From an uncultured Bacilli bacterium (GTDB lineage Bacteria > Bacillota_I > Bacilli_A > RF39 > UBA660), in assembly GCA_934162425.1 (NCBI GenBank), contig CAKPIS010000001.1, forward strand, positions 158,034 to 222,033: a stretch of DNA of 64,000 nucleotides, read 5' to 3'. The notes beneath the pieces are model-generated. The model saw only the letters and a program-made list of their open reading frames with translations. It ran no database searches and was not told where the DNA came from. How positions within the stretch are numbered: the stretch's first letter is position 1; every line of letters begins with the position of its first letter. This document shows positions 21,766 to 30,262 of the stretch, piece by piece. Made by a program: the position numbers and the translations under genes.

Positions 21766-23034
21766 TTACTCTTTAAATTCAAATATTAAGTCCATTATCT
21801 GAACCTTATCACCATACTTAGCTCCCATTTCTAAAAGCTTATCATCAATTCCCATGGCACGAAGTTTTCTTGCAAAACGAAGAGCTCCTTCATCAGTAAA
21901 CTTAGTCATACGGAATAACTTTTCTATTTCTTTTCCTTTTATTACATAGATATCATTATCTCTTGTAATTGTAAATGGTTGTTCTTTTTTAAATTTGTAT
22001 AACACATGTGATTCAAATGAATCTTCATCAAATAATGGTTCTTCTTTTATTTTATCTAATTCATCAGCTATCTTGACTAATACTTTATCAATACCTTCAC
22101 CCGTTAGGGCACTAATCTCATAAACTGGTAATTTATATTTAGCTTTAAATCTTTCTAAGTTTTCTAAAGCACCATCTAAATCCATCTTATTTGCTATTAT
22201 AATCTGTGGCTTTAAAATAATTTTTTCATTAAAATCTTTAAGTTCTTTATTTATTACCTCATAATCATCTAATGGATCTCTTCCTTCGCATCCCGACATA
22301 TCTATGATATGTGCTATAACGCGAGTTCTTTCTATGTGTTTTAAAAACCTATCTCCAAGACCTTCACCAAGTGATGCACCCTTTATTAAACCAGGCAAAT
22401 CTGCTGCAACAAAACTTCTTCCATCAATTGTTTTTACAACTCCTAAATTAGGTACAAGCGTAGTAAAATGATACTCTGCTATTTTAGGCTTAGAAGCTGA
22501 TATTTTTGAAATAAGCGTTGATTTACCAACAGATGGCATTCCAACAAAACCTACGTCTGCAAGTAATCTAAGTTCAACTTTTAGTGTTTTTTCTTCTCCT
22601 GGCTCACCATGTTCTGAAAAGTTTGGAGCTGGATTAGTTGCTGTTGCAAAAGCAGTATTACCACGACCACCTCTACCACCACTAGCTACTATGCAGCTAT
22701 CACCTTCACGTGTTAAGTCAGCAATTATTAGTCCAGTATCCAAATCCTTAACAGTAGTTCCAATAGGTACTTTAATAACAACATCTTCTGCACCACGACC
22801 ATTTTTATTTTTACCAGACCCATTAGCACCCTTAGGTGCTTTAATTAACTTTTGATATCTTAAATCAAGAAGTGTTCTAAGTCCTAAATCTGTCTTAAAT
22901 ATAATGTTAGCACCCCTGCCACCATTACCACCAAATGGTCCTCCATCTGGAATATATTTTTCTCTTCTAAAAGCAGTGCAACCATCACCACCGTTTCCAG
23001 CTTTAACCTTTATTATAACCTCATCTACAAACAT
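21766..23034 (-). CDS. obg: GTPase Obg.
   Basis: Glycine-rich Obg fold (AGNGGDGC, GGNGGRGANI, GGRGGRGN), G1 (GMPSVGKST) and an OCT domain. Confidence 0.95.
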   Translation of the reverse strand: MFVDEVIIKVKAGNGGDGCTAFRREKYIPDGGPFGGNGGRGANIIFKTDLGLRTLLDLRYQKLIKAPKGANGSGKNKNGRGAEDVVIKVPIGTTVKDLDTGLIIADLTREGDSCIVASGGRGGRGNTAFATATNPAPNFSEHGEPGEEKTLKVELRLLADVGFVGMPSVGKSTLISKISASKPKIAEYHFTTLVPNLGVVKTIDGRSFVAADLPGLIKGASLGEGLGDRFLKHIERTRVIAHIIDMSGCEGRDPLDDYEVINKELKDFNEKIILKPQIIIANKMDLDGALENLERFKAKYKLPVYEISALTGEGIDKVLVKIADELDKIKEEPLFDEDSFESHVLYKFKKEQPFTITRDNDIYVIKGKEIEKLFRMTKFTDEGALRFARKLRAMGIDDKLLEMGAKYGDKVQIMDLIFEFKE

Positions 23035-23046
23035 AATAATCCCCCT

Positions 23047-23481
23047 TTATCTATTTATTAATTTTACTAAAGCTTTTTTAGCTTTAACAGGAATTCCTTT
23101 ATTTTCATTTATCATCTTTCTTAATACTTTAATAAGTCTTTCTTTATCAAAATCACTAATTTTTCCTACATTATTTACTATACTATCAGTAGTTACTCTT
23201 TCTATTCTATTAATATTACTATTTTCATCATAAAAATAAACATAAGAAAATCTACCACTGTTAAATAAGTATATTATATCTAAATTAATACCATCAAAAA
23301 ACAATTTATCTCCAAACTCATATAATTCTTCTTTATTTTTAACTAAATCTAAATCACTATAAGCTATCTTTGTATTTACATATTCTTCTTTTGATTTATA
23401 ATTTTCATAATAACTTGTATCAATATCATAATATCTTTCTCTAGAATCACTTAATACAATACCATAACTTTTATTTTTCAT
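23047..23481 (-). CDS. Hypothetical protein.
   Basis: 144-aa ORF. No motif recognised. Confidence 0.35.
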   Translation of the reverse strand: MKNKSYGIVLSDSRERYYDIDTSYYENYKSKEEYVNTKIAYSDLDLVKNKEELYEFGDKLFFDGINLDIIYLFNSGRFSYVYFYDENSNINRIERVTTDSIVNNVGKISDFDKERLIKVLRKMINENKGIPVKAKKALVKLINR

Positions 23482-24123: not shown

Positions 24124-24183
24124 AATAAATCACCTCTAACTAATTTTACCATATAAAATAAAATAATAAAATATATTAATTTA

Positions 24184-24212
24184 AAAAGTATGAAATTTAA
24201 TTCATACTCTTT
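24184..24212 (-). terminator. Intrinsic terminator of WG-repeat paralog 1. The hairpin overlaps the last codons.
   Basis: Reverse strand: GAGTATGAATTAAATTTCATACTTTTTAA. Confidence 0.6.
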
Positions 24213-25720
24213 TTATAACAATTATTAAGTTCTTTTTCTACATCATCTTTATAAGAATTATTTATTTTTAAGATATCTTTTTCATATTGCTTTTTTAATA
24301 ACTCAAAAATATTATTAACTTCATTGTCTTCTTCATTCTTCATTTGACTTCTTTTTTCAATATATAAACTTATAGCATTTAAAAATTCATCTGCTTTACT
24401 TTCATCAGAAAACTGCAATTTTATTGTTTTATCTTGTAAATCTACCAATACTTCATATGTAGGATTTTTAAGATCTATAATATAACAATTATCGTCTTTT
24501 TGAACAAATACAATTCCTTCTCCGAAGGTAAATAATGCATCATAAACCGGTTTTACTACTTCTTTTCCTTCTTTATCTATAAGGCCATATTTATCATATT
24601 TTTTAACTTCAGCTAAACCATTAGAGAAATTATCTACATCATCATAAATTGGTTTTATTACTTCTTCTCCTTTTTTATTTATATAGCCCCACTTATCATT
24701 CTTTCGTACACAAGCTAAACCTTCCTCGAATTTTGAAGAAAGGCTATCATAAATTGGTTTTACTACTTCTTTTCCTTCTTTGTTTATAAAACCATATTTA
24801 CCATTTTTCCTAACATAAGCTAATCCTTCTTCAAAATTTGAAGAAATATCACCATAAATTAGTCTTACTACCTCTTTTCCTTCTTTATTTATAAGACCCC
24901 ACTTATCATTTTTCTTAACACTGGCCAAGCCTTCAGAAAAACTGTTAACCGAGTCATAAACTGGTTCTACCACCGCTTCTCCTTTTTTATTTATAAAACC
25001 CCACTTACCATTTTTCTTAACACAAGCTAAATCTTCTTTAAAATTTTTAGCCCAATCATAAATTGGTTTTATGACTTCTTTTCCTTCTTTGTTTATAAAG
25101 CCATACTTACCATCTTTTTCTATGCGTGCTAATCCTTTACAAAAATCACTAGCACAATCATAAACCGGTTCTACTACCTCTTCTCCATTTTTATCTATAA
25201 AGCCCCAGTAACCATCCTCTTTCACGCTAGCTATACCCTCGGAGAAGCTATGAATGCAATCATAAACTGGTTTTACTATTTTATTTCCTTCTTTATTTAT
25301 GACGCCATACTTATTATCTTTAGTAACTATTGCTAAATCCTCAGAGAAGTCATAGGCCCAATCATAAATTGGTTTTATTACTTCTTTTCCTTCTTTATTT
25401 ATGAAACCCAATTTACGATTTCTTCCTACTATTTCTAAACCCTCAGAAAAACAAGAGACATAATCATAAATTGGTGCTACTACTTCTTTTCCTTCCTTAT
25501 TTATAAAACCCCACTTACCATTCTTTTGTACACTAGCTAATCCTTCATAAAAGTAGCAAACATTATCATAAATTGGTTTTATTACTTCTTCTCCTTCTTT
25601 ATTTATAAAACCATATTTGCCATCTTTTTGAACACACGCCAAAGACTCACTAAAATCCATAATTTTATCATAATTATTTAGTATTTTTTTACCAGTACGT
25701 TTTTTAACAGTTATTTCCAT
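24197..25720 (-). CDS. WG/KWG-type beta-repeat protein, paralog 1 of 4. Conserved N-terminal ~35 aa, about 11 repeats of 34-37 aa, and a conserved C-terminal ~110-aa module.
   Basis: Repeat consensus KDGKYGFINKEGKEVIKPIYDxxxxFSEGLAxV. C-terminal module ...YIIDLKNPTYEVLVDLQDKTIKLQFSDESKADEFLNAISLYIEKR...CYKKSMN. No signal peptide. Confidence 0.75.
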   Translation of the reverse strand: MEITVKKRTGKKILNNYDKIMDFSESLACVQKDGKYGFINKEGEEVIKPIYDNVCYFYEGLASVQKNGKWGFINKEGKEVVAPIYDYVSCFSEGLEIVGRNRKLGFINKEGKEVIKPIYDWAYDFSEDLAIVTKDNKYGVINKEGNKIVKPVYDCIHSFSEGIASVKEDGYWGFIDKNGEEVVEPVYDCASDFCKGLARIEKDGKYGFINKEGKEVIKPIYDWAKNFKEDLACVKKNGKWGFINKKGEAVVEPVYDSVNSFSEGLASVKKNDKWGLINKEGKEVVRLIYGDISSNFEEGLAYVRKNGKYGFINKEGKEVVKPIYDSLSSKFEEGLACVRKNDKWGYINKKGEEVIKPIYDDVDNFSNGLAEVKKYDKYGLIDKEGKEVVKPVYDALFTFGEGIVFVQKDDNCYIIDLKNPTYEVLVDLQDKTIKLQFSDESKADEFLNAISLYIEKRSQMKNEEDNEVNNIFELLKKQYEKDILKINNSYKDDVEKELNNCYKKSMN

Positions 25721-25811
25721 AATGTTCTCCTTTATATTTATATAATTATTATATTTATATGTAAATATTTGTCAACTTACACAATAATATACAAATTAAA
25801 AAGTATGAAAT
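25721..25811 (-). promoter_or_regulatory. Conserved intergenic cassette. It holds the terminator hairpin of paralog 2 (25796-25830), then a sigma-A-like promoter (-35 TTGACA at 25770-25775, -10 TATAAT at 25748-25753, 16-nt spacer), then an AAAGGAGAA RBS for paralog 1.
   Basis: The reverse strand reads TTGACAAATATTTACATATAAATATAATAATTATATAAATATAAAGGAGAACATTATG. The whole ~90-nt unit is repeated almost identically before paralogs 2 and 3. Confidence 0.6.
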
Positions 25812-27533
25812 TTAATTCATACTCTTTTTATAACAAGCATTAAATTCTTTTTCTACATCATCTTTATAAGAATTATTTATTTCTAAGATATCTTTTTCAT
25901 ATTGTTTTTTTAATAACTCAAAAATATTATTAACTTCGTTTTCTTTCTCATTCTTTATTTGACTTCTTTTTTCAATATATGAACTTATAGCATTTAAAAA
26001 TTCATCTGCTTTACTTTCATCAGAAAACTGTTTTTTTATTGCTTTATCTTGTAAATCTATCAATACTTCATATGTAGGATTTTTAAGATCTATAATATAC
26101 CAATTATCATCTTTTTGAACAAATACAATTTCATCATCAAAGTTAGATACTGCATCACAAATTGGTTTTACTACTTCTTCTCCTGTTTTGTTTATAAGAC
26201 CCCACTTACCATTTTTCATAACTTTTACTAATCCTCCAGAAAAATCATCAGCCCAATCATAAACAAGATTTATTACTTCTTTTCCTTTTTTATTTACGAA
26301 ACCATACTTATCATCTTTTTGAACAAGAACTAAACCTTTAAAAAAGAAAGAAACAACATCATAAACTGGTTTTAATATTTCTTTTCCCTTTTTATTTATA
26401 TAACCACACTTACCACCTTTTTCAATGCGTGCTAATCCGTTATAAAAATAATCAACATAATCATAAATTGGTCTTACTATTCTCTTGCCTTCTTTATTTA
26501 TAAGTCCCCATTTGTCATCTTTTCTAACTCTAGCTAATCCTTCAGAAAAATCATCGACCTCATCATAAATTGGTTTTACTACTTCTTTTCCTTCTTTATT
26601 TATAAATCCCCACTTACCATCTTTTCTAACTCTAGCTAATCCTTCAGAAAAGTAGCAAGCATTATCATAAATTGGTTTTACTATTTCTTTTCCTTCTTTA
26701 TTTATGAACACATGCTTCCAACCTTTCATAACCCAGGCTAAATCTTCTCTAAAACTTGAAGCAGCATCATAAACTAGTTTTATTATTTCTTTTCCTTCTT
26801 TATTTATAAAACCATACTTACCATTTTTTCTAACATAAGCTAATCCTTCAGAAAAGTTTCCAACCCAATCATAAATTGGTTTTATTACTTCTTCTCCTTC
26901 TTTATTTACAAAGCCCCACTTGCCATTTTTTCTAACTCCAGCCAGTCCTTTAGAAAAGTAGAAGGCAGCATCGTAAACTGGTTTTATTACCTCTTTTCCT
27001 TTTTTATTTACGAAACCATACTTATCATCTTTTTTAACACGAACTAACCCTTCAAAAAAATCATCGACTTCATCATAAATTGGTTTTACTACCTCTTCAC
27101 CCTTTTTATTTATATAGCCCCACTTATCATCTTTTTTAACACGAACTAACCCTTCAAAGAAATCATCGACTCCATCATAAATTGGTTTTACTACTTCTTT
27201 TCCTTCTTTATTTATAAAACCATATTTATTATTTTTTTCAACCAAAGCCAATTCTTCAGAAAAGTCATAAGCAAAGTCATAAATTGATTTTATTACTTCT
27301 TTTCCGTCTTTGTTTATAAAACCAAACTTACCATTTCTTTTAATTCTAGCTAATCCTTCTTTAAAGCTATCAGCAAAGTCATAAATGAGTTTTATTACTT
27401 CTTCTCCTTCTTTGTTTATAAAACCATATTTGTCATCTTTTCGAACACACGCCAAAGACTCACTAAAATCCATAATTTTATCATAGTTATTTGATATTTT
27501 TTTACCAGTACATTTTTTAACAGTTATATCCAT
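25812..27533 (-). CDS. WG/KWG-type beta-repeat protein, paralog 2 of 4 (573 aa, about 13 repeats).
   Basis: Same N- and C-terminal modules as paralog 1 with a different repeat count. Confidence 0.75.
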   Translation of the reverse strand: MDITVKKCTGKKISNNYDKIMDFSESLACVRKDDKYGFINKEGEEVIKLIYDFADSFKEGLARIKRNGKFGFINKDGKEVIKSIYDFAYDFSEELALVEKNNKYGFINKEGKEVVKPIYDGVDDFFEGLVRVKKDDKWGYINKKGEEVVKPIYDEVDDFFEGLVRVKKDDKYGFVNKKGKEVIKPVYDAAFYFSKGLAGVRKNGKWGFVNKEGEEVIKPIYDWVGNFSEGLAYVRKNGKYGFINKEGKEIIKLVYDAASSFREDLAWVMKGWKHVFINKEGKEIVKPIYDNACYFSEGLARVRKDGKWGFINKEGKEVVKPIYDEVDDFSEGLARVRKDDKWGLINKEGKRIVRPIYDYVDYFYNGLARIEKGGKCGYINKKGKEILKPVYDVVSFFFKGLVLVQKDDKYGFVNKKGKEVINLVYDWADDFSGGLVKVMKNGKWGLINKTGEEVVKPICDAVSNFDDEIVFVQKDDNWYIIDLKNPTYEVLIDLQDKAIKKQFSDESKADEFLNAISSYIEKRSQIKNEKENEVNNIFELLKKQYEKDILEINNSYKDDVEKEFNACYKKSMN

Positions 27534-27624
27534 AACATTCTCCTTCTACATAATATAATTATTATATTTATATGTAAATATTTGTCAACTTACACAATAA
27601 TATACAAATTAAAAAGTATGAAAT
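27534..27624 (-). promoter_or_regulatory. Second copy of the terminator-promoter-RBS cassette (-35 at 27583-27588, -10 at 27561-27566).
   Basis: Near-identical to 25721-25811. Confidence 0.6.
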
Positions 27625-29079
27625 TTAATTCATACTCTTTTTATAACAATTATTAAACTCTTTTTCTACATCATCTTTATAAGAATTATTTATTTTTAAG
27701 ATATCTTTTTCATATTGCTTTTTTAATAACTCAAAAATATTATTAACTTTGTTTTCTTCCTCATTCTTTATTTCATTTCTTTTTTTAATGTATGAACTTA
27801 TAGTATTTAAAAATTCATCTGCTTTGTTTTCATCAGAAAACTGCAATTTTATTGTTTTATCTTGTAAATCTACCAATACTTCATATGTAGGATTATTAAG
27901 ATTTGCAACATACCAACTATCATCTTTTCGAACAAATACAATGCCATCACCCATGTTAGACACGAGATCATAAACTGGCTTTATCACTTCTTTTCCTTCT
28001 TTGTCTATAAGGCCGAACTTTCCATCTTTTTCAACACAAGCTAACCCATCAAAGAAAAAATAAATCCAACTATAAATTGGCCTTACTACTTCTTCTCCTT
28101 CTTTATTTATAAGACCAAACTTACCACCTTTTTTAACTTCAGTTAAGCCTTCTTTAAAACTACCAACCGGCCAATAAACTGGTTTTATTAATTTTTTTCC
28201 TTCTTTATTTATAAAGCCATATTTGCCTTTTTTCATAACATTAGCTAAACCTTCAGAAAAGTCATAAGCAAAGTCATAAATTGGTTTTATTACTTTTTTT
28301 CCTTCTTTATTTATAAAACCATACTTACCCTTTTTTTCAACACGTGCTAAGCCTTCAGAAAAGTTTCCAACATCATCATAAACTGGTTTTACTACTTCTT
28401 CTCCATCTTTATTTATAAAACCATACTTATAATCTTTTTTAATTTTAGCTAAGCCTTCAGAAAAGTTATCTGCCCAATGATAAACTGGTTTGATTACCAC
28501 TTCTCCTTCTTTGTTTATAAAGCCATGCTTAGGTTCCCAATAATCGTCTTCCACAACACGTGCTAATCCTTCAGAAAAGTTTCCAACATCATCATAAACT
28601 GGTTTTACTACTTCTTCTCCATCTTTATTTATAAAACCATACTTATAATCTTTTTTAATTTTAGCTAAGCCTTCAGAAAAATCATAAGCAGAGTCATAAA
28701 TTGGTTCTACTATTTCTTCTCCTTCTTTGTTTATAAAACCATACTTATCATCTTTTTTAATACGAGCTAAGCCTTCAGAAAAATCATATGCAAAGTCATA
28801 AATTGGTTCTACTATTTCTTCTCCCTCTTTATTTATAAAACCATACTTATCATTATCTATAAAACCCCACTTACCATTTTTCTTAACACGTGCTAAGCCT
28901 TCTTTGAAATTTGAAGCGCCATCATAAATTCGTTTTATTACTTCTTTTCCTTCTTTGTTTATAAAACCATACTTACCATCTCTTACAACACATGCCAAAG
29001 ACTCGCTAGAATCTAAAATATAATCATAATTATTTAACAATTTCTTACCAATTATTTGTTTTCTAACTGTTATTTTCAT
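27625..29079 (-). CDS. WG/KWG-type beta-repeat protein, paralog 3 of 4.
   Basis: Start corrected to ATG 29079 (MKITVRK), which is preceded by an AAGGAGAA RBS at the same spacing as the other paralogs. The track's earlier start is 29097. Confidence 0.75.
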   Translation of the reverse strand: MKITVRKQIIGKKLLNNYDYILDSSESLACVVRDGKYGFINKEGKEVIKRIYDGASNFKEGLARVKKNGKWGFIDNDKYGFINKEGEEIVEPIYDFAYDFSEGLARIKKDDKYGFINKEGEEIVEPIYDSAYDFSEGLAKIKKDYKYGFINKDGEEVVKPVYDDVGNFSEGLARVVEDDYWEPKHGFINKEGEVVIKPVYHWADNFSEGLAKIKKDYKYGFINKDGEEVVKPVYDDVGNFSEGLARVEKKGKYGFINKEGKKVIKPIYDFAYDFSEGLANVMKKGKYGFINKEGKKLIKPVYWPVGSFKEGLTEVKKGGKFGLINKEGEEVVRPIYSWIYFFFDGLACVEKDGKFGLIDKEGKEVIKPVYDLVSNMGDGIVFVRKDDSWYVANLNNPTYEVLVDLQDKTIKLQFSDENKADEFLNTISSYIKKRNEIKNEEENKVNNIFELLKKQYEKDILKINNSYKDDVEKEFNNCYKKSMN

Positions 29080-29097
29080 TATATTCTCCTTCTTCAT

Positions 29098-29170
29098 AAT
29101 ATAATTATTATATTTATATGTAAATATTTGTCAATATACGAGTTAATATACAAATTAAAAAGTATGAAAA
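29098..29170 (-). promoter_or_regulatory. Third copy of the terminator-promoter cassette (-35 at 29129-29134, -10 at 29107-29112; terminator hairpin of paralog 4 at 29154-29190).
   Basis: Near-identical to the other two cassettes. Confidence 0.55.
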
Positions 29171-30172
29171 TTAATTCATATTCTTTTTATAACAATTATT
29201 AAATTCTTTTTCTATATTATCCATATAATGATTATTTATTTCTAATAGATCTTCCTCATATTGTTTTTCAAGTGCCATAAAAACCTCAGTAAGTTCATCT
29301 TCTTCTTTATCTTTTCTTTTTATTTGTTTATCAATATAAACTTTAATATAATCTTTAAATTCATCCGCTTCATTTTCATTAGAAAACTGTCTTTTTATTA
29401 TTCTATCTTGTGAATCTACTGATACCTCATATGTAGGAATATTAAGATCTACAATGTACAAACTATTATTTTTTTTAACTATTGCTATTTTTTCATCATA
29501 GACAATGTCATTATAAATTGGTTTTACTACTTCTTTTCCTTCTTTATTTACAAGACCATACTTACCAATTTTTTGAACACGAGCTAATCCATATTGAAAA
29601 TCACAAACATCATCATAAATTGGTTTTATTACTTCTTTTCCTTCTTTATTTACAAGACCATACTTACCAATTTTTTGAACACGAGCTAATCCATATTGAA
29701 AATCACAAACATCATCATAAATTGGTTTTATTACTTCTTCTCCATCTTTATTTATAAAGCCCCACTTATCATTTATTTCAACGCTAGCTAAACCTTCTTC
29801 AAAGTCATAGATATAGTCATAAATTGGTTTTACTACTTCTTCTCCTTTTTTATTTATAAGTCCACACTTATCATTTTTCTTAACTCTTGCTAAGCCTTCA
29901 GAAAAGTTTCCAACAAGATCATAAATTGGTTTTATTACTTCTTCTCCATCTTTATTTATAAAGCCCCACTTATCATTTATTTCAACGCGAGCTAGACCTT
30001 CAGAAAAGCAATGAGCATTATCATAAATTGGTTTTACTACTTCTTTCCCTTCTTCATTTATAAATCCCCAATTGCCATTTCTCCTGACACATACCAAAGA
30101 CTCACTAATTCCCCTAATGTCATCATAATTATTTAATTTTTTTCCAATATGTTTTTTAACAGTTATATCCAT
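29171..30172 (-). CDS. WG/KWG-type beta-repeat protein, paralog 4 of 4 (333 aa). It is the shortest and most diverged, and contains a 102-bp near-perfect tandem duplication.
   Basis: N-terminus MDITVKKHIGKK. C-terminal module diverged but alignable (...YIVDLNIPTYEVSVDSQDRIIKRQFSNENEADEF...CYKKNMN). Confidence 0.7.
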   Translation of the reverse strand: MDITVKKHIGKKLNNYDDIRGISESLVCVRRNGNWGFINEEGKEVVKPIYDNAHCFSEGLARVEINDKWGFINKDGEEVIKPIYDLVGNFSEGLARVKKNDKCGLINKKGEEVVKPIYDYIYDFEEGLASVEINDKWGFINKDGEEVIKPIYDDVCDFQYGLARVQKIGKYGLVNKEGKEVIKPIYDDVCDFQYGLARVQKIGKYGLVNKEGKEVVKPIYNDIVYDEKIAIVKKNNSLYIVDLNIPTYEVSVDSQDRIIKRQFSNENEADEFKDYIKVYIDKQIKRKDKEEDELTEVFMALEKQYEEDLLEINNHYMDNIEKEFNNCYKKNMN

Positions 30173-30198
30173 AACATTCTCCTTCTACATAATGCATT

Positions 30199-30252
30199 TA
30201 TTATATTTACTTACAAATATTTGTCAATATAATATTAAAAAAATACCATCTA
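30199..30252 (-). promoter_or_regulatory. rpmA terminator hairpin (ATCATCTTATAGATGGTA followed by a T-tract), then the sigma-A-like promoter of WG paralog 4 (-35 TTGACA at 30222-30227, -10 TATAAT at 30200-30205).
   Basis: Read directly from the reverse strand. Confidence 0.5.
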
Positions 30253-30262
30253 TAAGATGATA

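Follow-up and report, generated by a model that had tools for sequence, protein, structure and literature searches.

How does a family of repeat-built proteins with no recognisable export signal come to differ so strongly between strains of one gut bacterium, at a site enclosed by housekeeping genes? The question is raised by a tandem array of WG-repeat genes on a 64,000-nucleotide (nt) stretch, here called the window, from an uncultured human-gut Bacilli bacterium (contig CAKPIS010000001.1; GC ~25%). The array lies between rpmA and trmB and comprises four minus-strand open reading frames (ORFs) of 507, 573, 484 and 333 amino acids (aa), referred to as g1 to g4. All four had been described in an earlier reading of the sequence alone and are indeed present; as that reading expected, they match PF14903 (WG_beta_rep; gathering score 25.6 bits), with scores of 261-556 bits over 12, 14, 10 and 6 stretches, respectively, and no further WG gene is found in the window. 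The evidence assembled here makes it probable that the locus is a strain-hypervariable cluster of tandem paralogs with separate promoters, driven by recombination and encoding non-exported accessory binding proteins.

Comparison of strains provides the first part of the answer. Contigs of the same species were retrieved by exact-protein look-ups of TrmB and L27 and share 97.9-100% nt identity in obg and 97.5-100% in trmB. The neighbours rplU-ysxB-rpmA and trmB-obg are constant in every strain compared, and the rpmA-trmB interval holds 0, 1, 3, 4 or at least 5 WG genes of 231-635 aa. No gene is found in L016, L017 and L023, where the interval measures 85-86 nt. A single gene is present in L011 (231 aa) and in L012 (299 aa, a chimera), and three genes occur in L025 (504-573-507 aa), L018 (470-505-476 aa) and L024 (484-533-544 aa). 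Arrays of four are seen in the window and L019 (333-484-573-507 aa, from g4 to g1), in L010 (299-484-573-507 aa) and in L020 and L002 (508-635-505 aa, then a gapped gene), and arrays of at least five in L022 (507-573-505-544 aa, then a gapped gene) and L001 (...573-601-505-544 aa, then a gapped gene). The window is identical to L019, a 213-kb contig from a Hadza gut metagenome, across the whole array, obg and trmB; the flanking genes of L010 that were compared are identical to those of the window, and its aligned flanks are 99.5-99.96% identical.

Upstream, the array is bounded by the rpmA terminator hairpin and T-run (window positions 30242-30264, minus strand; located by folding and spacer comparison), and downstream by the spacer towards trmB (24124-24196, minus strand), which is identical in all strains. 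At the empty site (10282-10368 in L016; also in L017 and L023) the T-run of the rpmA terminator is joined directly to AAATTAATATATTTT..., the trmB-proximal spacer sequence found after the last hairpin wherever an array is present, and this looks like a clean deletion between two T-runs. The array is thereby shown to be dispensable in nature. Two other species, with obg only ~80% identical at the nt level, have retained the family in this position, with three genes (581, 572 and 581 aa) in L004 and one gene of 315 aa in L005; WG genes between rpmA and trmB are therefore ancestral, and the empty site represents a loss. The nearest reference genomes with the family are two metagenome-assembled genomes labelled uncultured Bacilli and Muribaculaceae, the second label looking like an error given the synteny with the window.

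The differences between arrays can be resolved below the level of the gene. Genes were cut into units that were clustered at 95% nt identity, which yielded eight gene types (A-H) defined by their N-terminal segment, and strain differences fall into three classes. The first consists of unit-precise, in-frame gains and losses of repeats: depending on strain, genes of type D comprise 11, 14 or 15 units, gene 1 of L018 has one unit fewer than L025, and g4 of the window contains two adjacent 96%-identical units, a duplication, one of which is absent in L010. Exchanged C-terminal segments make up the second class, and units common to different gene types the third. Two breakpoints were mapped. Gene 3 of L002 tracks type F of L001, with one mismatch, until ~265 nt before the stop codon and type G thereafter, and is what would be left by an unequal crossover that removed exactly one gene. 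In the window, g1 combines a type D body with the last ~245 nt of the terminal gene of L001 and its downstream flank. Both breakpoints are at the 5' end of the segment encoding the C-terminal module described below, and all variants and gene copies seen keep intact reading frames. As far as sequences can show it, homologous recombination at nested scales (unit, gene and whole array) reshapes the locus, and the conserved gene ends together with the spacer appear as its substrate. The earlier proposal of a variable family is upheld: relatives carry neither a fixed array nor a known domain at the C-terminus, and instead display 0 to at least 5 genes, unit-precise changes, swapped modules and chimeras.

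Within the window, all features of the array are on the minus strand. The last gene, g1 (24197-25720; type D by the unit map; PF14903 475 bits), adjoins trmB. The gene g2 (25812-27533; type C; 556 bits) has an ortholog in L001 that is 96-100% identical unit by unit. For g3 (27625-29079; type B) the start was set at the ATG shared with the paralogs in the alignment, giving 484 aa; an upstream ATG would give 490 aa. The most divergent copy, g4 (29171-30172), is of type A, the type retained in single-gene strains. A 216-nt internal duplication with 90% identity, equal to two units (28338-28747), is found in g3, as well as an 8-aa partial unit (FIDNDKYG) and a 4-aa insertion, all of which appear to be remnants of recent recombination within the gene.

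The sequence-only reading had attributed near-identical ends and a common upstream unit to all four genes, which holds in part. Across the 5' 111 nt only g1 and g2 are near-identical (94% nt identity), so that the claimed N-terminal stretch of 35 aa stands for this pair, whereas g3 and g4 differ and carry indels. The last 330 nt share 91-93% nt identity among g1-g3 and 73-76% with g4; for the encoded C-terminal module this corresponds to 84-89% aa identity among the first three, which supports the claim, but to 55% for g4. Similarly, a 91-nt spacer with 85-91% nt identity is common to the three junctions between genes, in agreement with the ~90-nt unit proposed, but upstream of g4 only the half with promoter and ribosome-binding site (RBS) is shared, the terminator there being that of rpmA.

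Each gene appears equipped for its own transcription. Perfect TTGACA-N16-TATAAT sites (12/12) occur just four times in the 64 kb, once in front of each WG gene: 25748-25775 for g1, 27561-27588 for g2, 29107-29134 for g3 and 30200-30227 for g4. The same promoter scan revealed no overall excess of promoter-like sites in the window. Every promoter lies 43 nt upstream of AAGGAGAA, the RBS, and 55 nt upstream of the ATG; comparison of spacers and promoters places the RBS at 25725-25732 (g1), 27538-27545 (g2), 29084-29091 (g3) and 30177-30184 (g4). The perfect promoter and RBS are retained in nearly all of ~45 gene copies from 13 arrays, and the promoter is also found in the second species L004. An individual promoter for each gene, as first proposed, is thus confirmed at the sequence level, in the form of a per-gene architecture with a predicted sigma-70-type consensus and a strong RBS.

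A terminator hairpin overlapping the last codons had also been proposed. A 12-bp AT-rich hairpin, AAAAGAGUAUGAA/UUCAUACUUUUU, whose 5' arm coincides with the KKSMN-stop codons, is present at the end of all four genes, although it is weaker in g4 and too AT-rich for a generic terminator scan. Its folding energy ranges from -12 to -13.7 kcal/mol in g1-g3 (z about -3.3). At the end of g1 (24183-24212) the putative terminator has -12 to -13 kcal/mol and a z of -3.5; those of g2 (25798-25827) and g3 (27611-27640) are identified by folding and by conservation between strains, and that of g4 (29156-29189) reaches -8.5 kcal/mol. The hairpin is kept in all strains, in L005 and in gene 3 of L004, and the changes it has undergone are structure-preserving or one-sided. 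Genes 1 and 2 of L004 end in YKKV without it and have instead a different, GC-richer hairpin and a T-run downstream; this substitution supports its role as a terminator rather than as a required peptide. Transcription may terminate at these hairpins, and the four genes may be monocistronic, as first proposed.

The products vary in their number of WG repeats. The unit is 34 aa or 102 nt long, and TRF delimits arrays of 10.7, 12.7, 8.5 and 5.5 copies in g1 to g4, with an average nt identity of 70% between repeats. Positions G6, Y14 and F20 of the unit are invariant, and nine positions (16, 18, 19, 21, 26, 28, 30, 31 and 33) are highly variable. A single-sequence AlphaFold2 (AF2) model of g4 (pLDDT 68.7) shows four short strands per unit, each of which is predicted to form two beta-hairpins on the G/Y/F scaffold. 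The proteins begin with a short strand and half a repeat, followed by 4-15 WG units in the strains seen and by the C-terminal module. The number of units ranges freely from 4 to 15 and is not confined to ring-closing sets, which speaks for an open-ended array; a closed beta-propeller of the WD40, PQQ or BamB-like kind finds no support. No chain in the PDB matches the WG repeats by sequence. A 2021 survey lists PF14903 among the repeat families without known structure (PMC8078820), and in the literature on the family we found passing mentions only, with no assigned function and no solved structure.

None of the four proteins carries a recognisable export signal. The lack of a signal peptide noted earlier is confirmed by hydropathy: no hydrophobic N-terminus exists in g1-g4 (maximal 9-residue Kyte-Doolittle values of 0.7-1.5 in the first 43 aa), nor any membrane segment (maximal 19-residue values of 0.55-1.57). 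Signal peptide, lipobox, wall anchor and sorting signal are all absent from g1-g4, whose C-terminus is the polar NNCYKKSMN, and cysteine is not depleted (1.3% in the WG proteins vs 1.2% in the rest of the window). A type VII secretion signal of the YxxxD/E kind, considered in NSYKDDVEKE, was rejected on reading the sequence because the spacing is unsuitable. At least some other members of PF14903 differ in this respect, PA14_16330 being a predicted lipoprotein (PMC8855297). Among contigs of IMG/VR, L026 (4011-6501) has four tandem WG genes without signal peptide (201, 275, 169 and 169 aa), and L029 (5710-6792) encodes a WG lipoprotein between a gene for a 1075-aa restriction-modification-like methylase and a tape-measure-like gene.

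The C-terminal module occupies 24197-24496 in g1 (99 aa and the stop codon), 25812-26111 in g2, 27625-27924 in g3 and 29171-29470 in g4, as delimited by alignments. It had not been recognised as a described domain, and these ~99 aa do lack any match in Pfam, NCBIfam, PHROG and PADLOC and any similar structure in the PDB as searched with Foldseek; a match to Spectrin_5 was discarded, its 15 bits being below the cut-off of 27. When 1.84 billion representative proteins were searched exhaustively with a profile, 14 relatives were identified, and a word-indexed profile search of 5.8 billion proteins gave 22 matches. Of the strong matches, those read at sequence level correspond to a WG protein's C-terminus, to a fragment or to a stand-alone protein of 104-118 aa. 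The weak matches P0009, P0013 and P0014 are unrelated and were not counted as family members: P0009 and P0014 are MucBP/Muc_B2 and Ig/fn3 repeat proteins matched by beta-strand composition only, and P0013, whose three repeats bring to mind a beta-beta-beta-alpha unit of the AP2-like kind, has no significant Pfam family. Viral relatives of the module were looked for and none was found. The stand-alone proteins P0024 and P0027 are encoded at 8001-8357 in L006-L009 (8001-8315 in L009; 3505-3861 in L008), in a conserved neighbourhood of DUF6512, a metallo-beta-lactamase (MBL)-fold protein, CofD and RelA/SpoT. Because relatives are few and some stand alone in other contexts, the module is by all appearances an autonomous, lineage-restricted and previously undescribed domain.

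An AF2 model of the module based on the 22-sequence alignment (pLDDT 89) consists of four strands, forming a beta-hairpin part, and of one continuous helix (residues 38-104). This helix of 67 residues is amphipathic, with a hydrophobic periodicity of 3.65-3.67 whose peak was reached by none of 1000 shuffles. Spectral power is 66.6 at 3.67 residues vs 1.2 at 3.5, so the periodicity of a canonical heptad coiled coil is essentially absent, and the pattern fits an 11/3 (hendecad) amphipathic helix. Family members differ by deletions of 4, 7 and 25 residues inside it. The helix may assemble into a straight bundle of the hendecad type or pack against a partner. Spo0B, which has a phospho-accepting His in a helical hairpin and whose gene lies between rpmA and obg in Bacillus subtilis, was considered as a positional analog and rejected: the module has no invariant His, and its model is a single helix rather than a hairpin.

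Between orthologous WG genes the ratio of non-synonymous to synonymous substitution rates (dN/dS) is mostly 0.39-0.63, with one pair at 0.22 and one pair with six differences at 1.15, for dS values of 0.02-0.06; at similar dS, the ratio is 0-0.05 for obg and 0-0.22 for trmB. Since dS of orthologous copies equals that of the flanks, the copies have been stably inherited over the time of strain divergence. Allelic changes at the nine variable positions of the repeat are 31 non-synonymous and 8 synonymous, vs 53 and 45 elsewhere (Fisher p = 0.0065). Such a distribution agrees with a scaffold that is conserved and exposed positions that evolve freely or diversify.

The surroundings of the array contain further genes. 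On one side lie rplU (with an L21 leader), ysxB and rpmA, on the other trmB (an NCBIfam equivalog assignment at 161 bits), a 144-aa ORF and obg. The L21 leader (RF00559, 50 bits; 31190-31260, minus strand) is located upstream of rplU, so rplU-ysxB-rpmA is regarded as a separate operon ending at the rpmA terminator. The 144-aa ORF (23047-23481, minus strand) matches no family, has a dN/dS of ~0.4-1.3 between strains, and is missing from the WG-less lineage and from the two other species. Between an M50 peptidase gene and rplU there is a 521-aa ORF (31351-32916, minus strand) with ~11 degenerate repeats of ~37-40 aa and the motif N-S-x-Y-H-x-x-D-M-x-L-I. It has no match in Pfam, NCBIfam, PHROG or PADLOC, measures 501, 503 or 521 aa according to strain and is absent from the lineage without the WG array. 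ORFs of 74-109 aa on the plus strand (22904-23233, 27749-27973 and 29482-29757), opposite obg and WG genes, are most likely not genes; they are of low complexity and mirror the repeats of the other strand.

In the explanation that we consider probable, recombination between 102-nt units causes in-frame gain and loss of units, recombination between the conserved blocks of paralogs (3' module, 91-nt spacer and 5' end) deletes, duplicates or fuses genes, and one lineage has lost the array completely. The repeat array may provide a multivalent binding surface that differs in length and specificity between strains, and the helix of the C-terminal module may mediate oligomerisation or attachment to something. 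WG proteins would be abundant and probably cytoplasmic, unless an unrecognised export route exists, and their function would be accessory rather than housekeeping. Several observations weigh against this explanation. All comparison sequences are short-read metagenome assemblies, scaffold gaps of 100 N lie inside the arrays of L001, L002, L020-L022 and L011, and contigs L013-L015 break at the array edge, 88 nt upstream of trmB; single architectures could therefore be collapsed or chimeric. The terminal hairpins hold just two G-C pairs and fail the standard terminator scan, which makes read-through likely. Finally, the ratio of non-synonymous to synonymous changes at the hypervariable positions is compatible with neutrality and does not prove positive selection.

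Taken to its end, the first of these objections would mean that the variation is mostly an artefact of short-read assembly across near-identical repeats and that the true array is fixed. Besides the gaps and the contig ends, it could invoke the single, chimeric gene of L012, assembled at 4.3x coverage, and the conserved block of 3' module, spacer and 5' end, which is long enough to mislead assemblers. We consider this very unlikely, as the same architectures recur across independent samples and assemblers (the window is identical to L019 and close to L010, and L020 corresponds to L002), and L018, L019, L024 and L025 cross their arrays without any N on contigs of 200-400 kb at 19-99x coverage. 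Moreover, variants keep their frames and differ by whole 34-aa units, gene types A-H are distinct sequences rather than one set rearranged, other species hold one and three copies, and three assemblies show the empty site. If the variation is real, it could still reflect contingency or antigenic variation of a surface protein that is exported by an unrecognised route and switches frequently within a clone to evade antibody or phage. Such a scenario would account for strain-level hypervariability, for variable positions clustered in the repeat and for strong promoters, and the architecture resembles that of known variable families (PMC2568036). It is nevertheless unlikely, given the lack of signal peptide, lipobox, membrane segment, wall anchor and cysteine depletion. 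The elements by which contingency loci switch, namely simple-sequence tracts, invertible elements and silent cassettes, are also missing: TRF detected just the 102-nt coding repeats in the window and no simple-sequence tract, an inverted-repeat search found one weak intragenic inverted repeat and no invertible element or promoter, and there is no silent-cassette/expression-site arrangement since every copy has its own promoter. The agreement in dS between orthologous copies and flanks speaks for stable inheritance, and variation at the population level is by itself no demonstration of switching.

The absence of export signals, together with dispensability and hypervariability, could equally be read as a cytoplasmic repertoire of binding proteins engaged in conflict with phages or toxins as sensors, decoys or immunity proteins, with an arms race generating the diversity. 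Pointing in this direction are weak repeat matches to the PADLOC candidate defence proteins PDC-M03A and PDC-M10B, a local match of low root-mean-square deviation between the repeat model and the type VI secretion system immunity protein Tni2, and the IMG/VR contigs mentioned above, L026 with its tandem WG genes lacking export signals and L029 with its WG lipoprotein beside a restriction-modification-like gene. The PADLOC matches, however, are at the level of the repeat only (24-40 bits over short stretches), with no full-length defence protein and no partner genes nearby; neither the array nor its immediate surroundings contain an effector, toxin or nuclease domain, and the array is flanked by rpmA and trmB/obg rather than by a defence island. 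Searched for as a polymorphic-toxin immunity array, the locus had no adjacent toxin gene or secretion-system context in any strain, and no viral relatives of the module were found. Involvement in defence or immunity is a lead only, and we regard it as improbable. At the other extreme, the array might be a nearly neutral by-product of tandem duplication under relaxed constraint, with copy and repeat number having no specific role. A dN/dS mostly of 0.4-0.6, ~10x that of flanking genes, the complete absence of the array from one lineage and a ratio at hypervariable positions that is compatible with neutrality would all agree with this view. Against it, none of the ~45 copies from 13 arrays is disrupted and almost every one has a perfect promoter and RBS, dN/dS is mostly below 1 with invariant G/Y/F scaffold positions, and the gene persists in this position in species with obg only ~80% identical; we give the idea very little credence. 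A more specific version of the preferred recombining cluster, in which a germline-encoded set of multivalent cytoplasmic binders from the core genome oligomerise through the hendecad helix and are diversified by recombination, in repeat number and at the hypervariable positions, so as to recognise rapidly evolving targets inside the cell such as phage proteins or injected toxins without an enzymatic effector, or else reach the surface by an unknown route, seems to us doubtful.

WG repeats (PF14903) are widespread in bacteria, and neither an assigned function nor a solved structure was found for them. The locus offers a natural experiment on such proteins, since one gut species presents 0 to at least 5 copies, mapped breakpoints, changes at the level of the unit and defined variable positions, and it defines a new small C-terminal domain that is able to stand alone. 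To our knowledge, most hypervariable bacterial families are surface-exposed, which makes strong variation in non-exported proteins unusual and therefore makes this locus a concrete target for studying what drives diversity in an uncultured commensal.

Among surface proteins, the Mycoplasma Vlp/Vsa lipoproteins and the streptococcal alpha-C/Rib proteins are exported and anchored through lipoprotein or LPXTG signals and vary within clones, and several proteins of these types use invertible promoters or simple-sequence tracts. They resemble the WG array in that gain and loss of whole units in frame alters protein length between strains, but export and anchor signals, invertible promoters and simple-sequence tracts are lacking in the array. 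Within PF14903 itself, some proteins are predicted lipoproteins (PA14_16330 and that of L029), whereas the array members have no export signal and possess the rare C-terminal module. The closest described system is the lpl cluster of Staphylococcus aureus, located in the nuSa-alpha island, whose tandem paralogs evolve by a unit reaching from the 3' end of a gene across the spacer into the 5' end of its neighbour (PMC2568036). Both clusters consist of same-orientation tandem paralogs with copy numbers that differ between strains, in both a conserved segment common to the copies is the site of homologous recombination from which chimeric genes arise, and in both the unit kept together is formed by a 3' end, the spacer and the following 5' end. 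However, lpl products are lipoproteins with signal peptides encoded in a genomic island, whereas WG proteins have no export signal and are encoded between core housekeeping genes. WG proteins are also built, unlike those of lpl, from internal 34-aa repeats of variable number, and the conserved recombination block is at the gene ends in the WG array and at the gene centre in lpl. As its products are not lipoproteins, are internally repeated and come from a core-genome site, the array is not a member of the lpl family. Even if it were only an ordinary cluster of recombining paralogs, it would still provide a clean second example of the lpl-type evolutionary unit that spans adjacent genes.

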